Shown here in pieces: positions 29,618-59,943 of a stretch of 64,000 bases of DNA. The stretch lies in assembly GCA_965248055.1 (NCBI GenBank), contig CBDFIJ010000004.1:480001-544000 (forward strand), in the 5' to 3' direction. Under the pieces are notes generated by a model. It did no database searches and was not told where the DNA came from. It was given only the letters and a program-made list of their open reading frames with translations. The position numbers and the translations under genes were made by a program. Each line of letters starts with the position of its first letter. The first letter of the stretch is position 1. The stretch is from Candidatus Multivoradales bacterium. GTDB lineage: Bacteria > Acidobacteriota > Thermoanaerobaculia > Multivoradales > JAHEKO01.

Positions 29618-29808
29618 TACGGGCTCTGGAGAGTGCGCTCTATGAGCGCCGCCCAGAGCCTGGCAGGCTCCTGACCATTCTGATCGCGGCAGCCAGTACG
29701 CTGCGTCTGACTATCGCATGAAACTAGAAGATTCCCGCATTACGGTGAGTATGAGCCGCAAGGGCAACTGCTGGGACAACGCGCCGATGGAGAACTTCTT
29801 TGGCAGCT
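29618..29808 (+). pseudogene. IS3-family transposase fragment
   Basis: ALESALYERRPEPG, frameshift, HSDRGSQYAASDY...SMSRKGNCWDNAPMENFF. Confidence 0.85.
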
Positions 29809-30694
29809 TCCCCGCTTCGGCTATCGTCGTTTGCACGCGCTTCTGGTTAGGGAAGACTTTCATGTCAATCACAAGCGGATCCACCGAATATATCGCGAAG
29901 AGCAATTGATGCTTGGTCGTCGCAAACGCAAGAAAGTGGCAGTGTGTTCACGCCGCTGCCGCAAGGATCCCAGTGCTGCGAACCATCGATAGTCGGCGGA
30001 CTATGTATCCGATAGCTTGTCGTCGGGTCGCAAGTTTAGGACCTTGAATCCAGTAGATGACTATGAGCGGACATGCTTGGCGATTGAAGTCGACACGTCG
30101 ATTTCGACCAACCGCGTTACCAGAGTCCTAGCAGCCTGCTGAAAAAGTCGCAGATTTGGCGGTTTGAGGATCAATCTTGCACGACCGTCGGCGTAAGTCC
30201 TTTGTTTTGGTCTTCTGAACGAGCCATCTCAGGTTTTTCGGCACCCTCAAAATCGGTTTTCAGCAGGCTCCTAGATCGAGTGATCGAGCTACGGGGCGCT
30301 TAGCCGAAGAACATCGTCTTTGATAACCGGCCAGCGCCAAGAGCCAAGAAGGTTGACAAGTGGGCCTACCGGAACGGGATTGAGCTGGACTTTATGCGCC
30401 CTGGTAAGCCCGTGGATAACTGCATTGTAGAGAGCTTCAACGGCAAGTTTCGAGGCGAGTGCCTGAATATGCATTGGTTTGCCTGGCTCGCCGAAGCAAG
30501 GAGTCTTATCGAGGATTGGAGGATCGATTTCAACCAACAAAGACCTCACGGTTCGCTGGGATATACACCCCAAGTGAGTATGCCGCGCAGCAGGCGCTAC
30601 GGTCGACTACGTCGACCTTCGCACCCGTTGTCAAACGATCATGAAACCGGACGGATACTCTCATTATGATTGCGCGGACAAAGGGGGCAGGTCA
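29809..30694 (+). mobile_element. degraded IS3-family (IS407-like) element: orfB relic plus right end
   Basis: RFGYRRLH...NHKRIHRIYREE, PGKPVDN..ESFNGKFRGECLN, RPHGSLG with stops and frameshifts; ends GGGGGCAGGTCA. Confidence 0.85.
30132..30270. mobile_element. 139-bp MITE with CTAG target duplication
   Basis: TIRs AGCCTGCTGAAAA / TTTTCAGCAGGCT; CTAG at 30128-30131 and 30271-30274; removal restores the IS3 frame RVLDRVIELRG. Confidence 0.85.
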
Positions 30695-32065
30695 TCAAAC
30701 GGACAGCTCCTGCGGCTTGTCTGGTGGAGGGCCGTAGTGAAGGTTGACCAGCGGTGCGGGTTGGTCACCGAAGGCAATTCCCATGTCCGCTAAGAACGCA
30801 AACGGCGGCACTCCACCGATGAGAACGAATACATAATCGTTAGCCAGTTCGACTCGGTCGCCTTCGGAGACTTCAAGGACCACACGATCGGTTTGAATCT
30901 CAATCACATGCGAACTGAAGATTACTTGTACGCTGCCTTTCGTCATCGCCTTTTCAATCCGTTCTTGGTTCTTTTTCTTGATCCGAAAAAAGTTCGATTT
31001 GCGATAGGACAGTGTTACTTCATTGCTGGAAATCCGGGCCAACCCCAGCGCCGCCTCAATAGCGCTATCTCCGCCACCTACGACCAGGACTTTCTCGCCG
31101 CAATAGGAAGCGGCATCGATCAACCGATACATGACCTTCTCTTGCTCTTCTCCTGGCACGCCCAACATGCGCGGCGTACCTCGGCGCCCCAAACACAGCA
31201 GTAAGGTCTTGGTGAGGAAGTCACCATGGCCACTTCCCACCAGAAATCCACCGGCCTTTGAAACAACGCTGCGCAACTCACTTTCAAACGCGATCTCAAG
31301 TCCACTATTGTCGACCAGGTCGGTGAACAAACTCAAGAGATGTTCCTTGCTGTACTCGGCTCTTGACAACTCTACTGAGGGACCCACTTTGACCGGTTGA
31401 GTTAAAACCATCTTGCGACGTGGGTAGTGCAGCAGCGTACCTCCAATACTTGCTTCTCGCTCGAGAAGCCGAAAGCGTAGTCCCAGCGTCTGAGCTTCAA
31501 GTGCGGCGCTCAAACCTGCGGGCCCGGCACCCACGACGACCAAGTCCAACTCGCTAGCTCCGTCAAGTCTTGTATCGAGAGTCCGAGCGATAGCCTGAAC
31601 TGCGTCGCGCCCTTGTTCGCAGGCGTTCTTTACTAGAGCCAAACCACCGAGTTCACCAGCAATATAGATCCCAGGAACAGTTGTCTGATACTGAACATCA
31701 AGCCGTGGAATATCGTCGCGCCCTATTAGGTCTCCTAAGCCCACTTCGATGGCGCCCACCGGGCAGGCCGTCTCGCAGTGGCCGTGACCAACGCAACGCA
31801 ACCCGTTGATAACGACCGCCGTCCCTCCAACGACCCCGAGAGGATCGCCTTCCGGACAAGCTTCAATGCACGCGGCACAACCAATGCAAAGATTGGCGTC
31901 GATGTAGGGGTACTGGGCCGTGGGTTGATCGATTCCCAACAACAACGCCTCGGCTTTCCGTTTTCGGTCGTGGTGACGCCGTCGTCGAAACCGAACCGCG
32001 TACGGAACCACAAGTGCTGCAGTTATCAGTAGTGCTACGCACCAGATCACCAAACTCTCACTCAC
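30695..32065 (-). CDS. membrane-anchored 4Fe-4S dicluster + thioredoxin-reductase-like NAD(P)/FAD oxidoreductase
   Basis: N-terminal TM; CIGCAACIEACP and CVGHGHCETACP; GAGPAG; GGGDSA. Confidence 0.85.
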   Translation of the reverse strand: MSESLVIWCVALLITAALVVPYAVRFRRRRHHDRKRKAEALLLGIDQPTAQYPYIDANLCIGCAACIEACPEGDPLGVVGGTAVVINGLRCVGHGHCETACPVGAIEVGLGDLIGRDDIPRLDVQYQTTVPGIYIAGELGGLALVKNACEQGRDAVQAIARTLDTRLDGASELDLVVVGAGPAGLSAALEAQTLGLRFRLLEREASIGGTLLHYPRRKMVLTQPVKVGPSVELSRAEYSKEHLLSLFTDLVDNSGLEIAFESELRSVVSKAGGFLVGSGHGDFLTKTLLLCLGRRGTPRMLGVPGEEQEKVMYRLIDAASYCGEKVLVVGGGDSAIEAALGLARISSNEVTLSYRKSNFFRIKKKNQERIEKAMTKGSVQVIFSSHVIEIQTDRVVLEVSEGDRVELANDYVFVLIGGVPPFAFLADMGIAFGDQPAPLVNLHYGPPPDKPQELSV

Positions 32066-32076
32066 TGGACTAGGCC

Positions 32077-33720
32077 CTAGAAACGATATCCGATTCCGGT
32101 CAACGCTCTCTTACCTTCCACGTCGTCACCGCTGCTGAGCTCAAACTCAGCGCGAGCGAAGAAACCTCGCGGCAATGCAAACCCACTGCTGAGGCGCACC
32201 CACTGGGTCTCTCGTTCGGCCATTAGGAAGGTCATGTCATCAATAGTTCGTGCACCGGCAATCAAGCCAACACGATGACCGCCGCGAAACCGCTTGCCGG
32301 CTCGCAAGGTTAGCGTCAGCCCTTCACTAAACTCATTGGTAAATGACAACACATTCACCATGGCACTGTACTTACGACCAAACAGATTATTGTGCCCAAC
32401 TCCGACACCCAACGAGGTGGCGTCGTCCGAATCGCCAGAACGTTCGCGGGTACCGGCGGTCAAGGTTGTCCTGAATCCCTGAGCCCTGCCGATCGTCCAG
32501 CGCGCACGCAATCCCTGGCGGCGGCTCTCATCGAACAGTTCTTCGGGAATAAACCGCGTCTCCTCAGTACGATAGCGCTCAAAACGGCTGTAGGAAATCG
32601 ACAACCGATTGAGTTCAGAAAGCTGCACGTTGCCATTCAAGAACAACGTAGACAATTGACTCGAAGTACCGCTGACTTGCTCACGCCAGCCTCGATTTAG
32701 ATCCACTTCAGCGCGCTGATAGAAGCTCCAGCGCTTGCTGCTAATTCTGGCTTGAGTAGCAACATACTCCCGGCTAACGTCAGTCTCCCCGTCTTCTCTC
32801 ACACCGGCGATCAGGAACGACCGATTGGTCTTCTTGCTAGTCGATTCATGGCGTGCGGTAAGACCGTAACTGGTGGACCCACTAGCGATGCCAAAATCCG
32901 ATATTTCTGCGCGAGAACCGCCAAACGCCCCCAGGTAGAACGCCCCTAAACGCACCTCACCGCCCACTCCGTCGAGTGTGCCAACGCCGGCCAGAGAACC
33001 AAGGCGCAGCCTGCCAACCATGGCCGCATACCTAGATTCCTCCGGGTTGTAGGTGAGAGATAGTTCGTACAAGCGGTCGCGATCTTCACTTACACTAGAC
33101 GAACCGTCGGAACCAACAACTCGATCCAAAGACCGGGTAGAAGAACGAACCCTCAATTGCAAAGGCAAACCTCCGAGATTGCGACCTCGGAGGTTGAGGC
33201 GGGCCGAACTACGGTCGAAGTCATGTTCGCGTCCTGAATCGTCGGTGAACTGCTCCCAGTCGACAGTCAAACTTCCGCTCACGCGAGACCGGAGGACAGG
33301 TTCGGCTTTTGATGCCGAGCGATACGCGGTTGACGGAGCCGTCGTTTCTGCATCCGCGGGGACTTGATTCACGGAGGGGTCGGTGCTGGTTTCTTCTTCG
33401 ACCGGCACCTCGCCCTGCCAAACCACTTGATCACCTGGCTCCAAGGTCTTACTACTCTCAACAATTCGGCAAGAAGCCGAGTGAGTGGCGACGAACAGCA
33501 CTTCAAGAACGCCAATCGTGTCTCCCCCTCGCACCACCTCCAGCTGATCACCGACCGCAATCCCCAGTCGCGCACCGCCATTCAGGTAAACCCGATCTCC
33601 GGTTTGGTACTGCACTTCCAAGGTCACTGCTTGAGCAACAAGAGATGCGGCAAGCACTAGCGTCGGCATCGCAACCAATACGATTTTCCGGATCTGCATT
33701 GCTGCCAACACGCTAGTCAT
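32077..33720 (-). CDS. outer-membrane beta-barrel protein (putative porin)
   Basis: signal peptide; alternating hydrophobic strands; C-terminal beta-signal GIGYRF; start 33720 or 33699. Confidence 0.75.
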   Translation of the reverse strand: MTSVLAAMQIRKIVLVAMPTLVLAASLVAQAVTLEVQYQTGDRVYLNGGARLGIAVGDQLEVVRGGDTIGVLEVLFVATHSASCRIVESSKTLEPGDQVVWQGEVPVEEETSTDPSVNQVPADAETTAPSTAYRSASKAEPVLRSRVSGSLTVDWEQFTDDSGREHDFDRSSARLNLRGRNLGGLPLQLRVRSSTRSLDRVVGSDGSSSVSEDRDRLYELSLTYNPEESRYAAMVGRLRLGSLAGVGTLDGVGGEVRLGAFYLGAFGGSRAEISDFGIASGSTSYGLTARHESTSKKTNRSFLIAGVREDGETDVSREYVATQARISSKRWSFYQRAEVDLNRGWREQVSGTSSQLSTLFLNGNVQLSELNRLSISYSRFERYRTEETRFIPEELFDESRRQGLRARWTIGRAQGFRTTLTAGTRERSGDSDDATSLGVGVGHNNLFGRKYSAMVNVLSFTNEFSEGLTLTLRAGKRFRGGHRVGLIAGARTIDDMTFLMAERETQWVRLSSGFALPRGFFARAEFELSSGDDVEGKRALTGIGYRF

Positions 33721-35605
33721 CTCCGTCTGGGTGGCATTCAAGACAGGCACGGCTCTCGTACACATATCCGCTCACATCGTCATGATCGTCGTCAGTCTCT
33801 GATCGGCTATGTTCGTGGCAGTTAATGCACTCAAACACGCTGAAATCACTGGGTACGACGTGGCAGTCGGCACAGGTGTCCCATTCGTCACGGTGGTTTC
33901 CGGAGTCGATGGGGAAATACATGCCGTCGTGATTGAAATCAGCGTCCTCCCAGTCGTTGATGTTGTGGCAATCCTCACAGCTTGTAGGGAAACCAGCAGC
34001 TCGATGATCGGGGTCGTTGGTGTTGTCGTAGTCACTACGATGACAAGACACACACTCTGTAGAGGTATTGTCGAAACCATCGCTGTGGCAATCTTCGCAG
34101 TCGAGCCCACCATGACCACCGCGAAGTGGAAACGAATCGTGGTCAAAATTCGCGTCTTCCCAATCCACAATGTTGTGACAGTCCTGGCAGGTGGTGGGAA
34201 ACCCGGACTCAGCATGATTGGGGTCGCTGGTGTTGTCATAATCGGAGCGATGACACGACACACACTCGCTTGAAGTGTTATCAAAGCCATCACTGTGACA
34301 GTCCTCGCAGTCGAGCCCACCATGCCCGTCCCGTAGCGCAAAGAAGGTGTGATCGACTGTGGCGCCTTCCCATTCGACGATGTTGTGGCAGTCCTCACAC
34401 ATCGTCGAGATTCCCGACGCAGCGTGATCGGGGTCGCTGGTGTTGTCATAATCGAAGCGATGACACGACACGCACTCACTCGAAGTATTGTCAAAGCCAT
34501 CGCTGTGACAGTCTTCGCAGTCGAGCCCACCATGCCCGTCCCGTAGCGCGAAGAAGGTGTGATCGATTGTGGCGCCCTCCCACTCGACGATGTTGTGGCA
34601 GTCCTCACACATCGTCGAGATTCCCGACGCAGCGTGATCGGGGTCGCTGGTGTTGTCATAGTCGGAGCGATGACACGACACACACTGGCTCGAAGTATTG
34701 TCAAAGCCATCGCTGTGACAGTCCTCGCAGTCGAGCCCACCATGCCCGTCCCGGAGCGGGAAAAAAGTGTGATCTAGGACCGCTCCCTCCCAGGCAGCCG
34801 TACCGTGGCAGTCTTCACACATGGTGGAAAATCCGGAGGCTTGGTGATCCGGGTCAGTAGTGCTGTTGTAGTCGTCGGCGTGGCAGGCGTAACAATCAGT
34901 CGGCGTCCCCGCGAAGCCGTCGGCATGGCAGGCAGAGCAATCGAGAGGGGCATGGGCACCGCGCAGTGGGTAAAAGGTTTCGTGGTCGAAACCGGAACCG
35001 CCAAAGATCGCCGGCGACCAACCCTCCACACCGTGGCATTTCTCGCAGTTGGTAGAAAAGCCCAATATCACATGGTTGATATCAGCGTTTTGGTAGTCAT
35101 CTACATGGCAGCCGAAGCACTCGGTCGGAGTCAACTGGAATTCGAAGGGCGGATCTTCGTTGTGACAGGCGGCGCAGTCAGTGGCGCGGTGCGCGCCGGA
35201 AAGCGGGAACAGGGTTTCATCGTGCCAGGCTGCAAAGTCCAAACGTGCATCCCAACTACTCGGCGTGTGACAAGCCTCGCACGCGAACCCGAGTTCACCG
35301 AGGTGAGGATCTAAATGGCAATCAGCGCAAGCAGAGGCGACCTTGGAAAATTCAAAATCCAAGTGACAACTCATGCACGAAACATCACCGTGCCCGGCGG
35401 CAAGATCGAACCCGGTTGACAATTCATGGTCGAACTTAAGCGGTGACAGCAAGGGAGACCATCCCACAGTCGAGTGACAGTCGCTGCAAGACCCCGACAA
35501 CTCGCCGTGCGGGCTCTCCGGGCTCGCCTGGGCGGTCAACGTGGTCGGCGCCAGGGTGGCCGCCGCAATTACCAGCAATCGACATAACTTCCGGCTGCTA
35601 CTCAT
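33713..35605 (-). CDS. multiheme c-type cytochrome, 25 CXXCH
   Basis: 25 CXXCH counted; signal peptide; triheme repeat DH-x-F-x-L-x-x-x-H...; very acidic. Confidence 0.93.
   Translation of the reverse strand: MSSSRKLCRLLVIAAATLAPTTLTAQASPESPHGELSGSCSDCHSTVGWSPLLSPLKFDHELSTGFDLAAGHGDVSCMSCHLDFEFSKVASACADCHLDPHLGELGFACEACHTPSSWDARLDFAAWHDETLFPLSGAHRATDCAACHNEDPPFEFQLTPTECFGCHVDDYQNADINHVILGFSTNCEKCHGVEGWSPAIFGGSGFDHETFYPLRGAHAPLDCSACHADGFAGTPTDCYACHADDYNSTTDPDHQASGFSTMCEDCHGTAAWEGAVLDHTFFPLRDGHGGLDCEDCHSDGFDNTSSQCVSCHRSDYDNTSDPDHAASGISTMCEDCHNIVEWEGATIDHTFFALRDGHGGLDCEDCHSDGFDNTSSECVSCHRFDYDNTSDPDHAASGISTMCEDCHNIVEWEGATVDHTFFALRDGHGGLDCEDCHSDGFDNTSSECVSCHRSDYDNTSDPNHAESGFPTTCQDCHNIVDWEDANFDHDSFPLRGGHGGLDCEDCHSDGFDNTSTECVSCHRSDYDNTNDPDHRAAGFPTSCEDCHNINDWEDADFNHDGMYFPIDSGNHRDEWDTCADCHVVPSDFSVFECINCHEHSRSETDDDHDDVSGYVYESRACLECHPDGDD
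33950..34790 (-). repeat. four tandem 210-bp coding repeats (70 aa, three hemes each)
   Basis: equivalent anchor C(G/A)CTGTG(A/G)CA(G/A)TC(C/T)TCGCAGTCGAGCCCACCATG at 34081, 34291, 34501 and 34711. Confidence 0.92.
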
Positions 35606-35745
35606 AAGAATAGAGTCTCCAGCCGGACAGCCACAGAGCAACGGAAAAGATGGCTATGGCAACGATCATATCCGTGGATGTTCATCGATTCGTTTTGATA
35701 GTGCTCTCGTTGGCACTAAATTAGGATACCAAGCCTAAGTTACAG

Positions 35746-35761
35746 TGTGATGACCGTCATT
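35746..35761. promoter_or_regulatory. CRP/FNR-family-like site in divergent intergenic region
   Basis: TGTGA-TGACCG-TCATT versus consensus TGTGA-N6-TCACA. Confidence 0.35.
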
Positions 35762-35859
35762 TTGCAGTCGCAATCTGGCCTTAATGGTTGAGTTGATAGA
35801 CGTGAGCTTTACCAGAAATCTCTATCTCTGGCGCAAGAACTGAAAGAATCAACCAACCG

Positions 35860-36765
35860 GTGCCAACCCGCAAGTCCCAATCAACCACCGCCGCCACCCC
35901 ATCGGCAGTCCTTACTCGCCCACGGCTACCTTGGGCGGTCGGGGTTCTCTATGTGCTTTCGTTGGTCGTTCTAGCCTATTTCGCAGTCAATGGCTGGGAC
36001 TACTACACCACACCGCTGATCGAACGACCTCGCCACGAATTGTACTGGGCGTTAAAGCCCGGCGGCGAACTGGGTCGAGTTTTCGGAATCGTCGGTACCG
36101 CCTTGATGCTCTTGATGTTGTCGTACTCAGTACGCAGGAGATGGAAAGCCCTGGCAGGAATCGGGAACTTGGCTACCTGGCTTGATTTTCATATTTTCTG
36201 TGGAATCATCGGACCACTCTTTGTTGTTCTTCACAGCTCGTTCAAAGTGACTGGACTGGTAGCGCTGAGTTTTTGGTCGATGGTGCTGGTTGCGGCCAGC
36301 GGCGTAGTGGGTCGGTTTCTCTACCAGCAGATTCCGCGGCGACGGTCCGGGGACGAATTGAGTCTCGCTGAAGTTGAGGCAAGAAGACAAAGGGCGAAAC
36401 TCAGCTTATCGAGGGATTTCGGTGTCACCATAATCCACTTACAGCGCATCGAGGAAGTCGCCCTGGCAGGAGTCGATTCACAAGCTGGACTGCTGAAGGC
36501 CCTGCTAACCATGCCGGTGGCAACATCGATCGTTCGGCTGCGCATCCGCCATCTTGCCCGCCAGTTCCCTTCGGTAAATAAAAGCCAACTTGGCCGACTG
36601 CTCGAAGAGCAAGCGCTATTATCCATGCGAGTATCGATGTGGAAGCGGACCCATGAGCTGTTCCACTACTGGCACGTTCTGCACCGCCCTTTTGCCCTAG
36701 TTATGTATCTTTTCGCCGCAGTCCACATTATCGTAGCAACGGTCACTGGCTACGGCTTCAACTGA
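35860..36765 (+). CDS. inner-membrane protein with heme-b-type His ligands (ferric-reductase/cytochrome b-like)
   Basis: about 5 TM helices; WLDFHIFCG..LHS and WHVLHRPF..VHI, each a His pair 13 residues apart; TGATG overlap with the next gene. Confidence 0.7.
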   Translation: MPTRKSQSTTAATPSAVLTRPRLPWAVGVLYVLSLVVLAYFAVNGWDYYTTPLIERPRHELYWALKPGGELGRVFGIVGTALMLLMLSYSVRRRWKALAGIGNLATWLDFHIFCGIIGPLFVVLHSSFKVTGLVALSFWSMVLVAASGVVGRFLYQQIPRRRSGDELSLAEVEARRQRAKLSLSRDFGVTIIHLQRIEEVALAGVDSQAGLLKALLTMPVATSIVRLRIRHLARQFPSVNKSQLGRLLEEQALLSMRVSMWKRTHELFHYWHVLHRPFALVMYLFAAVHIIVATVTGYGFN

Positions 36766-38636
36766 TGCAGCGACGACTCGTCGCAGCTTGCCTGGGAGGA
36801 ATCTTTCTGTTCGCTGTCCCGACAACAGCTCAGATCTCCCCCGGCCCGCTGGCCGACTCCCACAGCGACCTAGAAGGCAGTGGCAACTGCCTCAAATGCC
36901 ACACTCGCGGGGAAGGAGTCGAACCTAGCAAGTGTCTAAGCTGCCACCAGCCGCTACAACAGCGAATTGAGCGCGGCACCGGGCTGCATGCCGCAGTTGG
37001 CTATGAAGCCTGCAAAATCTGCCACATCGATCATCATGGTCGGTCGTTTGATTTGATCTATTGGGGCGATCAAGGGGTCGAAGAATTCGACCACACTCTG
37101 ACCGGCTATCCATTGAAAGGCGGCCATCTAAAGATTGATTGTCGAGATTGCCATCGTTCGGAATCCGTAGTCGATCCGGGGCCGCTTGTCCAAACCGGGA
37201 AGAAACTAAACCGGACGTATCTAGGCTTGAGCCCAGAATGCAATTCTTGCCACGCGGACACGCACCAGACTCAATTTGGCTCAACCCCTTGTGATTCGTG
37301 CCACCTTGTTGACGGTTGGAAGCCAGCTAGCCAGTTTGACCACGACCAATCCAACTTCGTACTCTCCGGTGGCCACCAAGAAGTTGCGTGCAATGGGTGT
37401 CATGATTCCGAAAACAGTGCCTCTGGGGACCTAGTTACGCGCTTCAAGCCGGTCCAACACCGGCTGTGTTCCGATTGCCACGCCGACCCCCACAGCGGCA
37501 GCCTGGGAGCCGAGTGCATGAGTTGCCACGGTACTTCTTCCTGGTCTGCGATCATTGGTTTCGACCACGACCGAACGAACTTTCCGCTAACTGGCGGTCA
37601 TCGGCAGGCTGCGTGTAGCGGCTGTCACCGAAATCAACGAGCAAAGCAACAGTACTCCAACATCGCCCACGCGGCTTGTACCGACTGCCATTCCGATCCA
37701 CACGAAAACAGACTCAGTGCCGAGTGCAAGTCTTGCCACACAACCTTGAGCTGGGCGGAAATTGCACCTGAAGCGTTCAACCACGAACAAACAAACTATC
37801 CTCTTGAAGGATCTCACCAAAACCTAGAGTGTGTATCTTGCCATCGAGTTGGCGAACCTTTGAGGATCACCGGCTTTGAACGCTGCGGCACCTGCCACGT
37901 TGATACTCACCTCGGTCAATTCACTCACCTAGGCTCACTAGGTGAATGCGCAACCTGTCACAACGTCAACGCGTTCTTACCGGCTCATTTTTCGTTGGAG
38001 GACCACCAGCAAAGCCGCTTTCCTCTTACTGGCCTACATCAAGCGATTCCTTGTCTGGCCTGCCACCAAGAAGCCGTCATCAGATCATCCGACGGTCGCA
38101 CTGAGAGCTTGGCCAGGAAGTTTCTCTTTGACGATTTGACCTGCTCTGCTTGCCATCGAGACCCTCACCAAGGTTCCGCCGACACTTGGCTGGCTCAAGA
38201 CGGGTGTTCAACCTGCCACACAACCGCTGCTTGGAATACCACCCGTTACGACCACAACGCTACTGAGTTCCCTTTGGAAGGGATGCATCTTTCAGTACCC
38301 TGTTCCGGATGTCACGCTGAAAATCTAACTGCCCAGCAACAAACTGAGGGGCAATACCCACTACGCCTTGCGGCAACGCCCAAGGAGTGCGCCTCCTGTC
38401 ATCAGGATATCCATCTAGGGCAGTTTTCTGGACGAGCTGGCGCCTGCCAGAGCTGCCATGCCAGCACAAGCTGGCAGGATCTCTCCTTTGACCACAATCG
38501 AGATGCGCGCTTTCCACTGGAAGGCGCTCACGCCGCCGCTTCATGTGCCTCCTGCCATTTTTTCGCCTCGCAGAACGAACCGGTTCGTTACGCACCGTTG
38601 CCAATTCTCTGTAACGATTGCCACAGTCAGAGCTAA
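36765..38636 (+). CDS. multiheme c-type cytochrome, 23 CXXCH
   Basis: 23 CXXCH counted; signal peptide ending before QISPG; FDH..T.FPL.G.H triheme repeats. Confidence 0.93.
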   Translation: MQRRLVAACLGGIFLFAVPTTAQISPGPLADSHSDLEGSGNCLKCHTRGEGVEPSKCLSCHQPLQQRIERGTGLHAAVGYEACKICHIDHHGRSFDLIYWGDQGVEEFDHTLTGYPLKGGHLKIDCRDCHRSESVVDPGPLVQTGKKLNRTYLGLSPECNSCHADTHQTQFGSTPCDSCHLVDGWKPASQFDHDQSNFVLSGGHQEVACNGCHDSENSASGDLVTRFKPVQHRLCSDCHADPHSGSLGAECMSCHGTSSWSAIIGFDHDRTNFPLTGGHRQAACSGCHRNQRAKQQYSNIAHAACTDCHSDPHENRLSAECKSCHTTLSWAEIAPEAFNHEQTNYPLEGSHQNLECVSCHRVGEPLRITGFERCGTCHVDTHLGQFTHLGSLGECATCHNVNAFLPAHFSLEDHQQSRFPLTGLHQAIPCLACHQEAVIRSSDGRTESLARKFLFDDLTCSACHRDPHQGSADTWLAQDGCSTCHTTAAWNTTRYDHNATEFPLEGMHLSVPCSGCHAENLTAQQQTEGQYPLRLAATPKECASCHQDIHLGQFSGRAGACQSCHASTSWQDLSFDHNRDARFPLEGAHAAASCASCHFFASQNEPVRYAPLPILCNDCHSQS

Positions 38637-38960: not shown

Positions 38961-40324
38961 GGATCCGTCCCGATTGTTGTGGAAATTGAGAAAGGCGTAA
39001 CCTCCGGTAGTCAAAAACCGTCGCCGAGTAGGCGAAAGGAGGCTACGCCATGGACAAGAGTACCAATCAGAGACCGGAATCATCTCGTTTCCACCAAGAT
39101 ATTCAGTCAAAGCTTCAGCACCGTATCCGGGAAGCAATCGAAATAGTTCTAGAAGAAGAGCTTGCTGACGCATTGGGTTGTGTTGCGTACGAGCGCTCAG
39201 ATGAGCGCTCGGGCTATCGCAACGGCAAACAAGAGCGGACGATCACGACCCGATACGGATCCCGGCAACTGCGAATTCCTCGTGGTCGGGTAGTAGGCCA
39301 AGATGGATCCACTGAGGAGTTTCAAAGCCAGCTTGTTGAGCGCTACCAGCGGCGCACCCGAGAGGTGGATGAAGCGATTCTCGGCTGCTACCTAGCAGGG
39401 GCCAACAGCCGTCGGATCAAGAAGGCCTTGACTCCACTGCTGGGCAGGGAGCATCTATCCAAGAGCGCTGTGTCTCGGGTGGTATCTCGTTTGAAGGAGC
39501 ACTTTGCCCGTTGGAGTGATCGAGGCCTGTCCGAGGAAAGCTACCCGATCTTGTTTCTTGATGGCTTTCACTTGAAAGTGCGGCTTGCTCGGCGCGTGGT
39601 GTCAGCTCCGGTGCTGGCTGCTCTGGGGGTAAGAAAAGATGGCACCAAGGTACTGGTAGCTCTACGGTTAGCAGCCAGTGAGGCAGGCAGTCACTGGAAG
39701 TGGTTGATTGAAGATCTTAAACGCAGGGGCTTGAAAGCACCGCATCTCCTGGTCTCAGACGGCCACAAGGGCTTGGCGGTGGGAGTCAGGGCTTGGCCAG
39801 AGGCCAAAGTCCAGCGCTGTATCCAGCACAAGTGGGAAAACCTGAAGAAGCACTGCCCTAAGCATGCTCATGGTGAGCTCAAGCGAGACTGGGATCAAGT
39901 GGTGCGAGCCCAAGATGCCCTGGCGGCCCGAGAGAGTTATTCAATCTTTGTTACCAAGTGGTCCAAGCTGGTGCCCGCAGTAGCCAGGAGTTTTCAAGAG
40001 GCTGGGATGGAACTGATCACTTTCTACGATTTACCGAGATCATTGTGGCGATCCACAAGGACCACCAACGCGCTGGAGAATCTCAACCGTGAGTTTCGGC
40101 GCCGTACCAAGACCCAAGGCTCATTCTCGACTGAGGCAGCGGGTGTTACCTTGCTCTGGGGACTCGTCGCTTTCGGTCAGATCAAGATGCACCGCATCAA
40201 CGGCTACCAAGACTTGCACCGGATGCTTGACCGTCAAGCAGCCGCGTAGGACTAGAATCAACTAAACCTGACTGCGGGAGACGCTACGCCAAATACCAAT
40301 TTCCACAAGATTCGGGACACATCC
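38961..40324 (+). mobile_element. IS256-family insertion sequence, 1364 bp
   Basis: 27-bp imperfect IRs GGATCCGTCCCGATTGTTGTGGAAATT / AATTTCCACAAGATTCGGGACACATCC; 8-bp TSD GACGATCT. Confidence 0.95.
39050..40249 (+). CDS. IS256 family transposase
   Basis: YRNG, LFLDG, VSDGHKG, QRCIQH, TTNALENLNRE. Confidence 0.95.
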   Translation: MDKSTNQRPESSRFHQDIQSKLQHRIREAIEIVLEEELADALGCVAYERSDERSGYRNGKQERTITTRYGSRQLRIPRGRVVGQDGSTEEFQSQLVERYQRRTREVDEAILGCYLAGANSRRIKKALTPLLGREHLSKSAVSRVVSRLKEHFARWSDRGLSEESYPILFLDGFHLKVRLARRVVSAPVLAALGVRKDGTKVLVALRLAASEAGSHWKWLIEDLKRRGLKAPHLLVSDGHKGLAVGVRAWPEAKVQRCIQHKWENLKKHCPKHAHGELKRDWDQVVRAQDALAARESYSIFVTKWSKLVPAVARSFQEAGMELITFYDLPRSLWRSTRTTNALENLNREFRRRTKTQGSFSTEAAGVTLLWGLVAFGQIKMHRINGYQDLHRMLDRQAAA

Positions 40325-41215
40325 GACGATCTTGGCCTGGGCCGGAATCGGATCCACAGCTCCCCGGAACCGGTTGAGGTAGTCGATCAGAGTTCCACCG
40401 CTTCCCGCTTGGCCGGCTTCATAGTCTTTGAAATCAGACCGGAACCAATCAAAAATCTTGGATAGATGGACAGTTGTGCTCGCAGAGTCGTAGCGACAAT
40501 TACCTTCCTGGTTGACAAACTCGGTCATAGCTGCAGTCAACTGGGAGTCTAAGATCTCAGCTTCAAACGGTTCTTGGGGTAATCGCGGACAACCGCGAGA
40601 TGCACAGTTGAGGGCGGCGTGAATCCGCGGATCGTGAAACTGCGCCCGCACGATCTCGTTCTCAAGCTTGTTGAGGCTCATGCGCTCGCCGCCAAGTTGG
40701 TACTTATTGCCAACGAAAAAACCCGCACCGGTACCCGTCCAACCCCAGACCGTGTCCTTACCTGCCGGTAAATTCAGCACTCCACGAAAGACCAACGCGT
40801 TGTATGCGTTGACATAATAAGCCAAGGCATGGTTTTGACTGGGGAACAACTCTGGGCGATTCATCGGGCTGATCGTCTTCACTTGATCCAGATAGGACTC
40901 CAAGGCTTGAGGATGGTCTTCCAGAGAGGCGTAGTCCACCTGTCCGTCGGCATCGACAAACCGGAGCAGAACTTCAGCCCACCCAAAATGATCGTAGGTG
41001 GTGCGACTGAAAATCTTGTGCGGCTCTTCCGCCATCACTCCCCCTGTGCAATTGGTCGCAACCAGCACACCCACTACAACTTGTCGTATCTGTTTTCCGC
41101 GCATGCCCCTTCTACGCGCCTGTGCACCGCCCGAAACGCAAAGCCAGGGCGCCAGCCCTTGGTTGAAACAGACCCAGCATCCTGTCCATCTCCCTCCAGC
41201 GGGCAAACGGCCCTT

Positions 41216-42091
41216 CTAGAGAAACAGAACGTCGATCGCAGTGGTGACAAACAACCAGGTCGCAAGCAGTCCATTCGCCAGAAAAAAAGCTGCATTGAGA
41301 CGCGAAAGGTCACCAGGACGCACCACCCAATGTTGATACGCCAGCAGTGCTGCACAGCCGATGACGCCAACCCAATAGGCGATTCCCAAGCCAAGGGGAT
41401 AGAAACGCGGCAATACCGCTAGAACGCCGAGCATCGCAACATGCAACAAACTCGAGACCCACAATGACCCCACCTGACCGATCGCGGCCGGGATCGAATG
41501 CAAGCCGCTCTTGCGGTCGTGCTCCATGTCTTGCAAGGCGTAAAGAATGTCGAAGCCAGCGACCCACAACACCACCACAACCGCCAACAAGATGGGAGTT
41601 GTGGCTACCGAGCCCTGGACCGCGATCCAAGCGCCCAACGGTGCGCCACTCAAAGCCAGCCCCAGCACCAGATGGGATAACGCGGTGAAACGTTTGGTCA
41701 GGGAGTAGCCAAGGATGATCGGCAGCGCGACAAAAGCCAACTTAAAGGTCAAGGCGTTGAGCTGCCAGGCAGCCAGCAACAGCAACCCGACACTGGCTGT
41801 GACAAACAATCCGACAAAAGTTGTACTCACCGACCCAGCTGGCAGCGCGCGATCGGCGGTGCGCGGATTAACCGCATCAATACGCTGATCCACCAGCCGA
41901 TTGAAGGCCATCGCCGCACTTCTGGCACCCACCATCGCCACCACAATCCACCCCACCACGCGCCATGACGGCCAGCCCTCGGCCGCTAACACCATGCCCA
42001 GGAACGCAAAAGGAAGCGCGAACACCGTGTGTTCGAACTTGATCATATTGAGCACGGTCCGAATCTGACTTGCTCTGGAACTCGTTGACAT
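41216..42091 (-). CDS. UbiA-like polyprenyltransferase (MqnP-type)
   Basis: MIKFEHTVFALPFA, FNRLVD..ID..NPRT, GFDILYALQD. Confidence 0.9.
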   Translation of the reverse strand: MSTSSRASQIRTVLNMIKFEHTVFALPFAFLGMVLAAEGWPSWRVVGWIVVAMVGARSAAMAFNRLVDQRIDAVNPRTADRALPAGSVSTTFVGLFVTASVGLLLLAAWQLNALTFKLAFVALPIILGYSLTKRFTALSHLVLGLALSGAPLGAWIAVQGSVATTPILLAVVVVLWVAGFDILYALQDMEHDRKSGLHSIPAAIGQVGSLWVSSLLHVAMLGVLAVLPRFYPLGLGIAYWVGVIGCAALLAYQHWVVRPGDLSRLNAAFFLANGLLATWLFVTTAIDVLFL

Positions 42092-59082: not shown

Positions 59083-59144
59083 GGATGTGTCCCGAATCTT
59101 GTGGAAATTGGTATTTGGCGTAGCGTCTCCCGCGGTCAGGTTTA
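59083..59144 (-). mobile_element. right end of the same IS256 (fragment)
   Basis: reverse complement of 40263-40324 with one mismatch. Confidence 0.92.
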
Positions 59145-59943
59145 GGGCGTGTTCACACTAGTTGATGTATACTCGGTGGATGGAAATAACAATAGAACAA
59201 TTTGCCCGAATCGAGCCTTTCCTTCCACGACAGCGTGGCAATGTATCGATAGATAACCTCCAGGTGCTCAACGCGATACTTTACGTTGCAGAACATGGCT
59301 GTAAGTGGCGCGGGCTGCCGAAGCGTTTTGGTAATTGGCATACCGTCTATACGCGTATGAACCGTTGGGCAAAGAAAGGCGTGCTGGATCGAGTGTTTAG
59401 TGAACTGCAACGCCAGCAAGTCATTCAGGTCCGTGTTGAGGCGGTTTCACTCGATAGCACAGCGGTTAAGGTACACCCTGATGGAACGGGCGCTCTAAAA
59501 AAAACGGTCCACAGGCGATCGGCAAGTCGCGGGGAGGATGGACTACAAAGATTCATATGGTTGCCGCAGATGCTCGGACCGCAGTGAATTTTTCTCTGTC
59601 TCCTGGCAATGCTGCTGACGCGCCAGAGGGTCGTAAACTATTGAGAGAAACAACCCTATCGGCCAAATACATGATTATGGACCGAGCGTATGAAGGTAAT
59701 GAAACACGCCAACTCGTGCTCGATCTTGGTCTTACACCTGTTGTGGCGCCGAAAAGCAATCGATTACAACCTTGGCTATACGACCGAGAAATGTACAAGA
59801 AGCGCAATGAAGTCGAGCGCTTGTTTCGTCGCTTGAAGGGGTTTCGTCGGATATTCTCACGCTTCGACAAATTGGACATAATCTTCACATTCTTCATACA
59901 CTTCGCACTCATTGTCGATGCTATATTTAGCGTTAACGCGCCC
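59145..59943 (+). mobile_element. IS5-family (IS427-like) element, two ORFs joined by -1 frameshift
   Basis: IRs GGGCGTGTTCACACTA / TAGCGTTAACGCGCCC; TA flanks; A8 at 59497-59504; LDST, GKSRGGWTTKIH, DRAY, RNEVERLF. Confidence 0.92.

Follow-up and report, generated by a model that had tools for sequence, protein, structure and literature searches.

The stretch of DNA analysed here, referred to as the window, comprises 64,000 nucleotides from a Candidatus Multivoradales bacterium (Acidobacteriota, Thermoanaerobaculia; contig CBDFIJ010000004.1, positions 480,001 to 544,000); it is contained in four sequencing runs, all from one study, and no RNA run was among those listed for it. Within the window, a locus of about 8 kb carries five genes, which encode a membrane-anchored Fe-S flavoprotein, an outer-membrane beta-barrel, two c-type cytochromes with an unusually high number of haems (cytA and cytB) and an inner-membrane protein (IMP). 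Four of the products correspond to the porin-cytochrome complex predicted under the name PCC3; the flavoprotein would be a fifth, dedicated component, which may feed the conduit directly from cytoplasmic NAD(P)H. The features are the following (positions in the window):

30695–32065, minus strand: Fe-S flavoprotein gene, 456 amino acids (aa) (Pfam and NCBIfam, alignments)
32077–33765, minus strand: outer-membrane beta-barrel gene, 562 aa as open reading frame (ORF), likely start ATG at 33720 (AF2 model)
33713–35641, minus strand: cytA, 25-haem c-type cytochrome, probable start ATG at 35605, Sec signal peptide (CxxCH count)
34005–34774, no strand assigned: 210-bp tandem repeat in cytA, 3.7 copies, 86% match (Tandem Repeats Finder)
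35642–35859, no strand assigned: intergenic spacer from which the cytA > barrel > flavoprotein unit and the membrane protein > cytB unit diverge (sequence)
35860–36765, plus strand: IMP gene, 301 aa (motifs, AF2 model)
36765–38636, plus strand: cytB, 23-haem c-type cytochrome, Sec signal peptide (CxxCH count)

All five ORFs were found where an initial annotation of the window, made from the sequence without database searches, had placed them, and the tight coupling in two divergent units which it described was confirmed. The stop codon of the IMP gene and the ATG of cytB overlap by 1 nt (TGATG), so that cytB is coupled translationally to the IMP gene; an overlap of 8 nt exists between the barrel ATG at 33720 and the stop of cytA, and 11 nt lie between the barrel stop and the GTG of the flavoprotein gene; both units share a spacer of roughly 220–250 bp. 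A promoter scan of this spacer gave one sigma-70-like match (plus strand, 35695–35722), which is no more than was obtained in shuffled sequences. As had been suggested, the predicted products would provide one component for each cell compartment, namely the cytoplasmic flavoprotein, the IMP, cytB, cytA and the outer-membrane barrel.

CytA contains 25 CxxCH motifs in 642 aa (25.7 aa per haem) and cytB contains 23 in 623 aa (27.1 aa per haem), in agreement with the 48 c-haems counted earlier; neither CxxxCH nor CxxxxCH motifs occur in the two proteins. Both are built of c7-type triheme units (Cytochrome_C7 repeats in Pfam) and are paralogues with 31% identity. One unit of the 210-bp repeat in cytA corresponds to 70 aa and three haem sites, and the repeat is a likely source of the variation in haem number among orthologues: across loci, intact cytB proteins have 20–24 haems and cytA proteins 10–48. 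The cytA gene is invariably located directly upstream of the barrel gene. The remark that these triheme-repeat cytochromes do not resemble the decahaem MtrA proved correct, since the scores with TIGR03508 were 39.2 and 37.2 bits (cut-off 192.2). Profile comparison with Mtr proteins placed neither cytochrome within the MtrA/DmsE or the OmcA/MtrC families; for the latter, TIGR03507 gave 23.9 bits (cut-off 209.3), with cytB only. The Pfam model for MtrC/MtrF domain II/IV matched cytA with 37.9 bits (cut-off 30) and cytB with 28.0 bits, which is a local similarity of haem packing only.

The barrel protein matched no Pfam or NCBIfam family at E ≤ 0.01. It has 161 homologues, and among the 120 listed all names given by the sources are "hypothetical protein"; of the five genes, that of the barrel diverges by far the fastest. 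An AF2 model based on a 52-sequence alignment (pLDDT 84.4, pTM 0.71) has 22 strands; it begins with a signal/helix region, followed by a small beta domain in the periplasm (residues 49–116), a disordered linker (119–152) and the barrel proper (161–561). The best structural matches were 22-strand barrels of TonB-dependent transporters (Z 15–17, 345–365 residues aligned), for example the SusC-like protein 5t3r_D (Z 17.1, 365 aligned) and FyuA and Cir (Z 15.7). The model is without a plug domain; the lumen would be free and in principle roomy enough for a haem chain. Foldseek returned generic barrels only (TMq 0.22–0.42). MtrB was not among the structural matches listed, which does not exclude a likeness to it; the MtrB barrel has 26 strands, the barrel described here 22. 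In another acidobacterial genome (G166; L123:3756–5681) a protein of 641 aa with an N-terminal AMIN domain (E 3e-5) is encoded 3' of cytA, in the position of the barrel; it was missed by tblastn with the barrel from the window.

The IMP contains the motifs W107x3H111x13H125 on transmembrane (TM) helix 3, S147GxxG151 on TM4 and W271x3H275x13H289 on TM5. Residues W107, H111, H125, S147, G148, G151, W271, H275 and H289 are invariant in alignments of 12 and of 34 sequences. The earlier term "His-rich" was an overstatement for a protein with only 10 His in 301 aa; it is the four invariant His residues in the membrane that matter. In the AF2 model (pLDDT 87.5), five TM helices (25–44, 70–94, 104–125, 132–157 and 261–295) are accompanied by a four-helix domain (169–259) between TM4 and TM5, and this loop is long, conserved and rich in basic residues. 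From the distribution of charges, the 169–259 domain and the N-terminus would be cytoplasmic, on the same side as the bulk of the flavoprotein. The IMP can thus be predicted as a di-haem b transmembrane carrier, with H111/H275 as ligands of an inner haem and H125/H289 of an outer haem. Profile searches showed a large family (4063 cluster representatives at E ≤ 1e-3, 691 at E ≤ 1e-30); the ten representatives examined out of 4063 bore labels of Krumholzibacteriia and Planctomycetota only.

The flavoprotein consists of a hydrophobic N-terminal TM helix, a basic stretch RFRRRRHHDRKRK, a ferredoxin-like domain (Fer4 dicluster) and a flavin domain (Pyr_redox_3/Pyr_redox_2; Pfam and NCBIfam). Its Fe-S motifs are C60xxC63xxC66xxxC70P and C91x5C97x3C101P; two alignments show no variation at C60, C66, C70(P), C91, C97 and C101(P) and almost none at C63. 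The glycine motifs for FAD and NAD(P)H (GAGPAG, 179–184, and GGGDSA, 330–335) are likewise invariant, and a redox-active CxxC was not found in the flavin domain, neither in the sequence nor in the alignments. The nearest relatives of solved structure are YpdA/Bdr (7a7b, 2.5e-46), thioredoxin reductases and TrxR-type ferredoxin-NADP reductases. The flavin domain thus appears closest to the NADPH-dependent YpdA and TrxR enzymes and to TrxR-type ferredoxin-NADP reductases, which would agree with a function as NAD(P)H dehydrogenase of a conduit. Identification as a YpdA/Bdr bacillithiol-disulfide reductase was rejected (TIGR04018 159.1 bits, cut-off 339.9); compared to YpdA/Bdr, the protein possesses an additional TM anchor and a ferredoxin domain. 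The positive-inside rule, together with the lack of a contrary Tat or Sec signal, suggests a cytoplasmic location for the bulk of the protein. A flavin-domain paralogue of 687 aa (34% identical; L108:1522–3585) is encoded on the same contig at about 1.667 Mb, beyond the window. In this protein the flavin domain forms a fusion with a membrane region of several helices and with a polyferredoxin at the C-terminus, which has CxxxCxC and two 4Fe-4S motifs and is NapH/NosR-like in appearance; a similar ORF of 794 aa is the top flavoprotein match in the same-genus genome G001. This paralogue is a further instance of this flavoprotein class being linked to a membrane electron carrier.

Of 12 loci around homologues of the barrel gene in related genomes, 11 contained the complete set of five genes; the remaining genome (G009) has the genes for IMP, cytB and flavoprotein on the same contig, but at a distance of about 80 kb. 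A scan with an IMP alignment, using one genome per species, yielded 79 loci, ten of which coincide with the barrel-homologue set of 12, so that neither set is independent of the other. Where 20 kb or more of sequence was available (41 of the 79 loci), the flavoprotein gene was present without exception (41/41), the barrel gene in 40 cases and all five genes in 40, the exception being G009. The 38 shorter loci contained the flavoprotein in 20 and the barrel in 22 cases, and the 18 without a flavoprotein match all end before its expected place. Hosts were mostly Thermoanaerobaculia, Vicinamibacteria and Holophagales, and single loci were found in Ignavibacteria, Schekmanbacteria, WOR-3 and Saprospiraceae. 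The distribution in 41 related genomes was all-or-none (thresholds E ≤ 1e-60 for the flavoprotein and E ≤ 1e-120 for the IMP): barrel, flavoprotein and IMP were present in 13 and none was detected in 27, among them the same-genus genome G001, while one case was truncated (G015, where the contig ends inside the barrel gene). The conservation of all five genes, which the initial annotation had proposed as a check, was thus obtained (11/12 and 40/41 loci). Since these five genes are found grouped in dozens of other genomes as well, their arrangement is not due to chance, and the notion that they form a conserved functional module is supported.

The commonest gene order is IMP > cytB > cytA > barrel > flavoprotein. 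Other orders were cytA > barrel > flavoprotein with IMP > cytB; IMP > cytB > flavoprotein > cytA > barrel; barrel > flavoprotein > IMP > cytB; and IMP > flavoprotein > cytB. The divergent layout of the window is one variant among these recurring orders. The pairing of cytA and barrel was never broken, and the IMP gene adjoins cytB except where the flavoprotein gene intervenes (Emticicia, locus L100). The flavoprotein gene changes its position, in at least five gene orders, yet remains in the cluster. One metagenome-assembled genome of the Acidobacteriota (L069; CAWKAS010000005.1, 180340–201158) contains two complete five-gene modules side by side, in differing orders.

An even sample consisted of 151 acidobacterial genomes of at least 90% completeness, in which IMP orthologues were accepted at E ≤ 1e-60. 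They were present in 15 genomes, that of the window included, or about one in ten species; 13 of the 15 loci were new and were fetched. A TrxR-type flavoprotein was found in 12 of the 15 genomes, in one of them at the edge of another contig, and in distant loci (IMP 30–41% identical) its gene was directly beside the IMP gene in 7/7. Two of the three genomes without the TrxR-type (G166 and G094, both 100% complete) possess instead a gene of the FNR-type directly upstream of the IMP gene. The encoded protein comprises FAD_binding_6, NAD_binding_1/NAD_binding_6 and a C-terminal 2Fe-2S domain (Fer2), and there is a match to the "Ferric reductase NAD binding domain" as well; in G166 its N-terminus is hydrophobic. 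The FNR-type enzyme would appear to be a non-orthologous displacement of the TrxR-type flavoprotein. Gene content, motifs, folds, conservation and this swapping of partners are direct observations on the loci. Since an unrelated Fe-S flavoprotein has been exchanged at the same operon position, the role of the partner is probably that of a cytoplasmic one-electron donor from NAD(P)H to the IMP, and the replacement, as the strongest argument available to us, indicates such a role.

The cluster can be compared with PCC3 as defined by He, Barco, Emerson and Roden in 2017 (PMC5566968), i.e., a porin, an extracellular cytochrome with a median of 34 haems, a periplasmic one with a median of 21 and an IMP. 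According to that description, the IMP has about 300 aa and five helices, and WX3HX13H occurs on both TM3 and TM5, SGxxG on TM4; the cytochromes have 22–39 aa per haem (median 26), and the hosts are Alpha-, Beta- and Gammaproteobacteria. In Gallionellaceae, 21, 24 or 27 haems were given for the periplasmic and 10–35 for the extracellular cytochrome (PMC9900912). The locus in the window agrees with this in its barrel (a 22-strand model with barrel-fold matches of Z 15–17), in two giant low-complexity cytochromes of about 26 aa per haem (25.7 and 27.1, within the range of 22–39), in the size and helix number of the IMP (301 aa, five TM helices) and in the IMP signature, SGxxG on TM4 and WX3HX13H on TM3 and TM5. 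One cytochrome is nearly constant (20–24 haems here, 21–27 in PCC3) and the other variable (10–48 here, 10–85 in PCC3). The match was made feature by feature, in architecture and motifs, against the published definition. Because the split into a constant and a variable cytochrome mirrors that of Gallionellaceae PCC3, cytB is proposed as the periplasm-spanning wire and cytA as a wire that would be inserted in the barrel or exposed at the surface.

Differences from PCC3 concern the barrel (22 strands here, "up to 42" in PCC3), the hosts, which are Acidobacteriota, Bacteroidota and Ignavibacteria, and the gene content. PCC3 is a set of four genes, whereas here an Fe-S flavoprotein of NAD(P)H-type is conserved as the fifth in all 41 loci with full flanks, which is absent from the published description and its quinone model. 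The main text and the accessible supplement text of He et al. (PMC5566968) contain no mention of an FAD or pyridine-nucleotide protein, and this supplement text none of pfam07992, pfam13738 or Acidobacteria; among the papers searched, none pairs PCC3 with a flavoprotein. The cluster is best described, from its sequence features, as a PCC3-type architecture with a fifth dedicated component, PCC3 itself being a prediction. The earlier view of an "undescribed system" has to be given up for the barrel, the two cytochromes and the IMP, which agree with the published definition in each feature; neither does the cluster map fully to a characterised complex, since PCC3 is functionally unverified and a bioinformatic prediction (bioRxiv 10.1101/2025.02.27.639646).

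With MtrCAB, MtoAB and PioAB the locus shares a cytochrome gene beside the gene for an outer-membrane barrel, and a haem chain which would pass through the barrel. Here, however, triheme c7-type repeats with 23–25 haems take the place of the decahaems of MtrCAB and MtoAB, and a predicted di-haem b protein with a flavoprotein stands where the quinol dehydrogenase CymA feeds MtrCAB (He et al. 2017, PMC5566968). Two sets of published clusters were considered and found to be different: the cytochrome/barrel clusters of Thermoanaerobaculia described by Flieder et al. 2021 (PMC8528874) are of an NHL-repeat/PPIase type, and four clusters for extracellular electron transfer from peat (10.64898/2026.05.27.727921) have 8–13 haems and belong to Terriglobia and Verrucomicrobiota.

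A second likeness exists to the NADPH oxidases and ferric reductases (NOX/FRE) and to MsrQ with its flavin reductase, in which electrons proceed from NAD(P)H to flavin, to two stacked bis-His b haems and to an outside acceptor. The IMP has two His pairs, each 13 residues apart, on two TM helices, and haem binding is predicted. Unlike NOX/FRE, with six helices and a covalently fused FNR-type dehydrogenase, the IMP has five helices, and the dehydrogenase is encoded by a separate gene of the TrxR/YpdA class, whose product is TM-anchored and has an added Fe-S domain; the acceptor would be a haem-c wire instead of O2, an Fe(III)-chelate or MsrP.

The reading which we prefer, with a probability of about 0.55, is that of a PCC3-type conduit in which electrons pass from NAD(P)H via FAD, Fe-S clusters and the inner and outer haem b to cytB, to cytA and the barrel, and finally to an acceptor outside the cell. 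Cytoplasmic NAD(P)H would reduce the FAD of the membrane-anchored flavoprotein, whose two Fe-S clusters would release the electrons singly to the haem b on the cytoplasmic side of the IMP (His111/His275). The membrane would then be crossed to the haem b on the periplasmic side (His125/His289), and the 23-haem cytB, spanning the periplasm, would take over the electrons and pass them to the 25-haem cytA, which would sit in the plug-less 22-strand barrel or run through it. Fe(III) or Mn(IV) minerals, humics, an electrode or another cell could serve as terminal acceptor. The binding of haem b, the contacts between the proteins, the identity of the outer cytochrome, the direction of flow and the acceptor are predictions within this scheme. 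It would work like an NADPH oxidase divided into separate proteins, a haem-c wire taking over from O2 as the acceptor, and the quinone pool would not be needed. Wiring to cytoplasmic NAD(P)H, already considered in the initial annotation, appears to be the best-supported reading of the flavoprotein; its co-location with the other genes and its replacement by the unrelated FNR-type flavoprotein favour a quinone-independent, NOX-like entry of electrons. Export from NAD(P)H would be driven by the membrane potential, with negative charge moving outward, and since the proton pumps would be bypassed, the conduit may be an electron dump for redox balance rather than an energy-conserving respiration.

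A more specific version is held only tentatively, at somewhat less than even odds. It has the flavoprotein dock on the cytoplasmic helical domain of the IMP and inject electrons into a wire of roughly 50 haems, with TrxR-type and FNR-type enzymes being interchangeable; potential-driven dumping of this kind might occur in many phyla, and the partner has perhaps been overlooked in proteobacterial PCC3.

Several observations weigh against an entry from NAD(P)H. The IMP gave sub-threshold Pfam matches to DUF4405 and to Ferric_reduct (PF01794), the latter with 17.7 bits (cut-off 28), and its distant relatives P0272 and P0247 are likewise below the Ferric_reduct cut-off. No fusion of IMP and flavoprotein and no longer fused IMP was found, which is weak evidence; the N-terminal extensions of six of the longest IMP representatives contained no redox domain in a domain scan, in which one weak match to DUF6572 and two weak matches to Ferric_reduct appeared. 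The second Fe-S motif of the flavoprotein has three Cys only, and the site may hold a 3Fe-4S cluster or have a non-Cys ligand. In G053 neither type of flavoprotein was found beside the IMP gene, which is located at the start of a contig and contains an in-frame TGA, and in G021 the genes for flavoprotein and cytA are fragmented, by decay or by an assembly error. The loci of related species are also not independent of each other. Finally, a search of the PDB with the IMP model by Foldseek gave no match at E ≤ 0.001, and the best structural matches in a second search, independent of Foldseek, were the di-haem b561 CybB (5oc0_A, Z 7.5, rmsd 3.5 Å, 131 aligned), followed by FdnI (1kqg_C, Z 5.8), cytochrome b6 and a designed two-haem bundle (Z 5.7–6.0), all with Z values below the level which the search tool gives as meaningful for helical bundles. 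As far as these weak matches go, CybB and FdnI are quinone-reactive and would fit a quinone model equally well.

This leads to the published model (He et al. 2017, PMC5566968), which connects the IMP of PCC3 to the quinone pool. Applied to the present locus, the IMP would be a quinol dehydrogenase or quinone reductase, and the flavoprotein an NDH-2-like or accessory enzyme and not a direct donor; its membrane anchor is what would be expected of a quinone reductase. The resemblance to CybB and FdnI is, however, in a range of Z which is common for helical bundles, and an Fe-S domain of ferredoxin type adjoining the anchor points to the transfer of single electrons between proteins; we know of no NDH-2 enzyme with Fe-S clusters. 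For a general quinone reductase, strict co-inheritance with the module, adjacency to the IMP gene and the swap for an FNR-type enzyme would be hard to explain, and this model, although the main alternative, is considered rather unlikely here.

The direction of flow is a further question, because PCC3 was originally described from Fe(II) oxidisers, with a proposed function as Fe(II) oxidase (PMC5566968), and haem wires are in principle reversible. Outside the cell, Fe(II), a cathode or a partner cell could act as donor, with electrons conducted inward to the respiratory chain or, through the flavoprotein, to NAD(P)+. Yet in Sideroxydans lithotrophicus ES-1, with the examples Slit_0867–0870 and Slit_1446–1449, expression of both PCC3 clusters decreased on Fe(II), and the authors of that study regarded them as not involved under their conditions (PMC8788666); this agrees better with outward flow than with Fe(II) oxidation. 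Reduction of NAD(P)+ from potentials in the range of Fe(II), and in opposition to the membrane potential, should also be strongly uphill, which makes the reverse mode considered in the initial annotation thermodynamically unattractive. The hosts, Thermoanaerobaculia, other heterotroph-like Acidobacteriota and Bacteroidota, include none named as an iron oxidiser. Electron uptake would therefore seem quite improbable.

A complete module was also found in a cultured strain, on plasmid pEMTOL02 of Emticicia oligotrophica DSM 17448 (Bacteroidota; NC_018749.1, 78197–89995). The genes follow in the order ccsA, IMP, NAD(P)-binding protein, 23-haem cytochrome, 40-haem cytochrome and a 538-aa protein. 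The IMP (281 aa) is 36% identical to that of the window and has two WX3HX13H motifs, the NAD(P)-binding protein (440 aa) is 39% identical to the flavoprotein over the full length, and the 538-aa protein is 22% identical to the barrel (E 1e-7). This copy shows that the module moves between phyla. A search of plasmids with the flavoprotein detected Emticicia only, besides a partial match in Pseudoalteromonas, and among the papers searched none links Emticicia with multiheme cytochromes. The ccsA gene which precedes the module encodes a fused cytochrome c biogenesis protein of 1028 aa; in another locus (L021, 10779–11831) the gene for a TPR-rich, CcmI-like membrane protein lies within the cluster. 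Some copies of the module bring their own cytochrome-maturation helper.

Emticicia oligotrophica is aerobic, and the presence of the module on a plasmid of such an organism might point to a non-respiratory function. Electrons from NAD(P)H would then serve repair, detoxification or metal handling in the periplasm or at the outer membrane, similar to MsrPQ or DsbD, and the barrel would have some other role. Related clusters without a porin do exist: He et al. (2017, Supplementary Table 6, PMC5566968) listed combinations of a multihaem cytochrome c, an IMP in which HX13H occurs twice, and a redox protein, for example in Bradyrhizobium, Rhodopseudomonas palustris TIE-1 and Gallionella ES-2. On a plasmid of Bradyrhizobium BTAi1 we found the order 2Fe-2S protein > IMP-like protein > 7-haem cytochrome (IMP 27% identity, E 3e-14). 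What is shared with the five-gene module is a related IMP, encoded there between an Fe-S redox protein and a multihaem cytochrome, but these clusters are barrel-free, the IMP is shorter, the cytochromes are small (7–10 haems), and the redox partner belongs to a 2Fe-2S family. The 48 haems, a cytochrome gene which always precedes that of a plug-less barrel and the variable outer cytochrome are, on the other hand, hallmarks of porin-cytochrome systems, and a purely non-respiratory role would appear improbable to much the same degree as electron uptake.

In the genome of G001, which belongs to the same genus as the window's organism and is 98% complete, barrel and IMP were not found, and the best flavoprotein match is a paralogue with 37% identity. 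Since the five-gene module was not found in this genome and is plasmid-borne in Emticicia oligotrophica, it is accessory. In G001, the sequences flanking the locus correspond to three places unrelated to each other, and an attempt to define the insertion site by synteny was given up, as no site could be drawn. The flanks contain the following:

29646–30669 (about), plus strand: left flank, decayed pieces of an IS3-type transposase (rve/rve_3, differing frames; Pfam rve_3 at 30394–30669)
38961–40300, plus strand: right flank, intact insertion sequence (IS) of the IS256/Mutator family, transposase at 39050–40249 (Transposase_mut 2.3e-87)

On the left, the stop-to-stop frames of the window sequence read as transposase-like protein, and the relics of an IS noted there earlier are indeed debris of the IS3-type (rve); the element on the right, also taken for a relic, is intact. 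With 4 full copies of 98–100% identity and about ten fragments in the 3.4-Mb host genome, the IS256-family element looks to have been active recently. A composite transposon was rejected, because the flanks belong to different IS families. A 39-bp end fragment of the IS256-family element is present at 59107–59145 of the window. To the right of the intact copy (40262–42091, minus strand) follow a DUF547 gene and a gene for a prenyltransferase of the UbiA family.

With the architecture otherwise known as PCC3 and predicted in 2017, the new element is the flavoprotein as fifth component, together with the all-or-none phyletic table, the displacement by an FNR-type enzyme, the plug-less barrel of the size of a TonB-dependent transporter, the plasmid copy in a cultured strain and the IS context of the locus. 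The plasmid copy makes the hypothesis directly testable. To our knowledge, all characterised porin-cytochrome conduits draw their electrons from the quinone pool or pass them on to it. If the proposed reading is true, a conduit with NAD(P)H as its direct source of electrons would represent a different coupling of metabolism to extracellular acceptors, i.e., redox balancing without energy conservation. PCC3 genes, which are presently counted as candidate Fe(II) oxidases in metagenomes, would then be read differently. In the more specific version, held tentatively, fermentative or oligotrophic bacteria of many phyla could use minerals or humics as a sink for reducing power and would need no respiratory chain for it.

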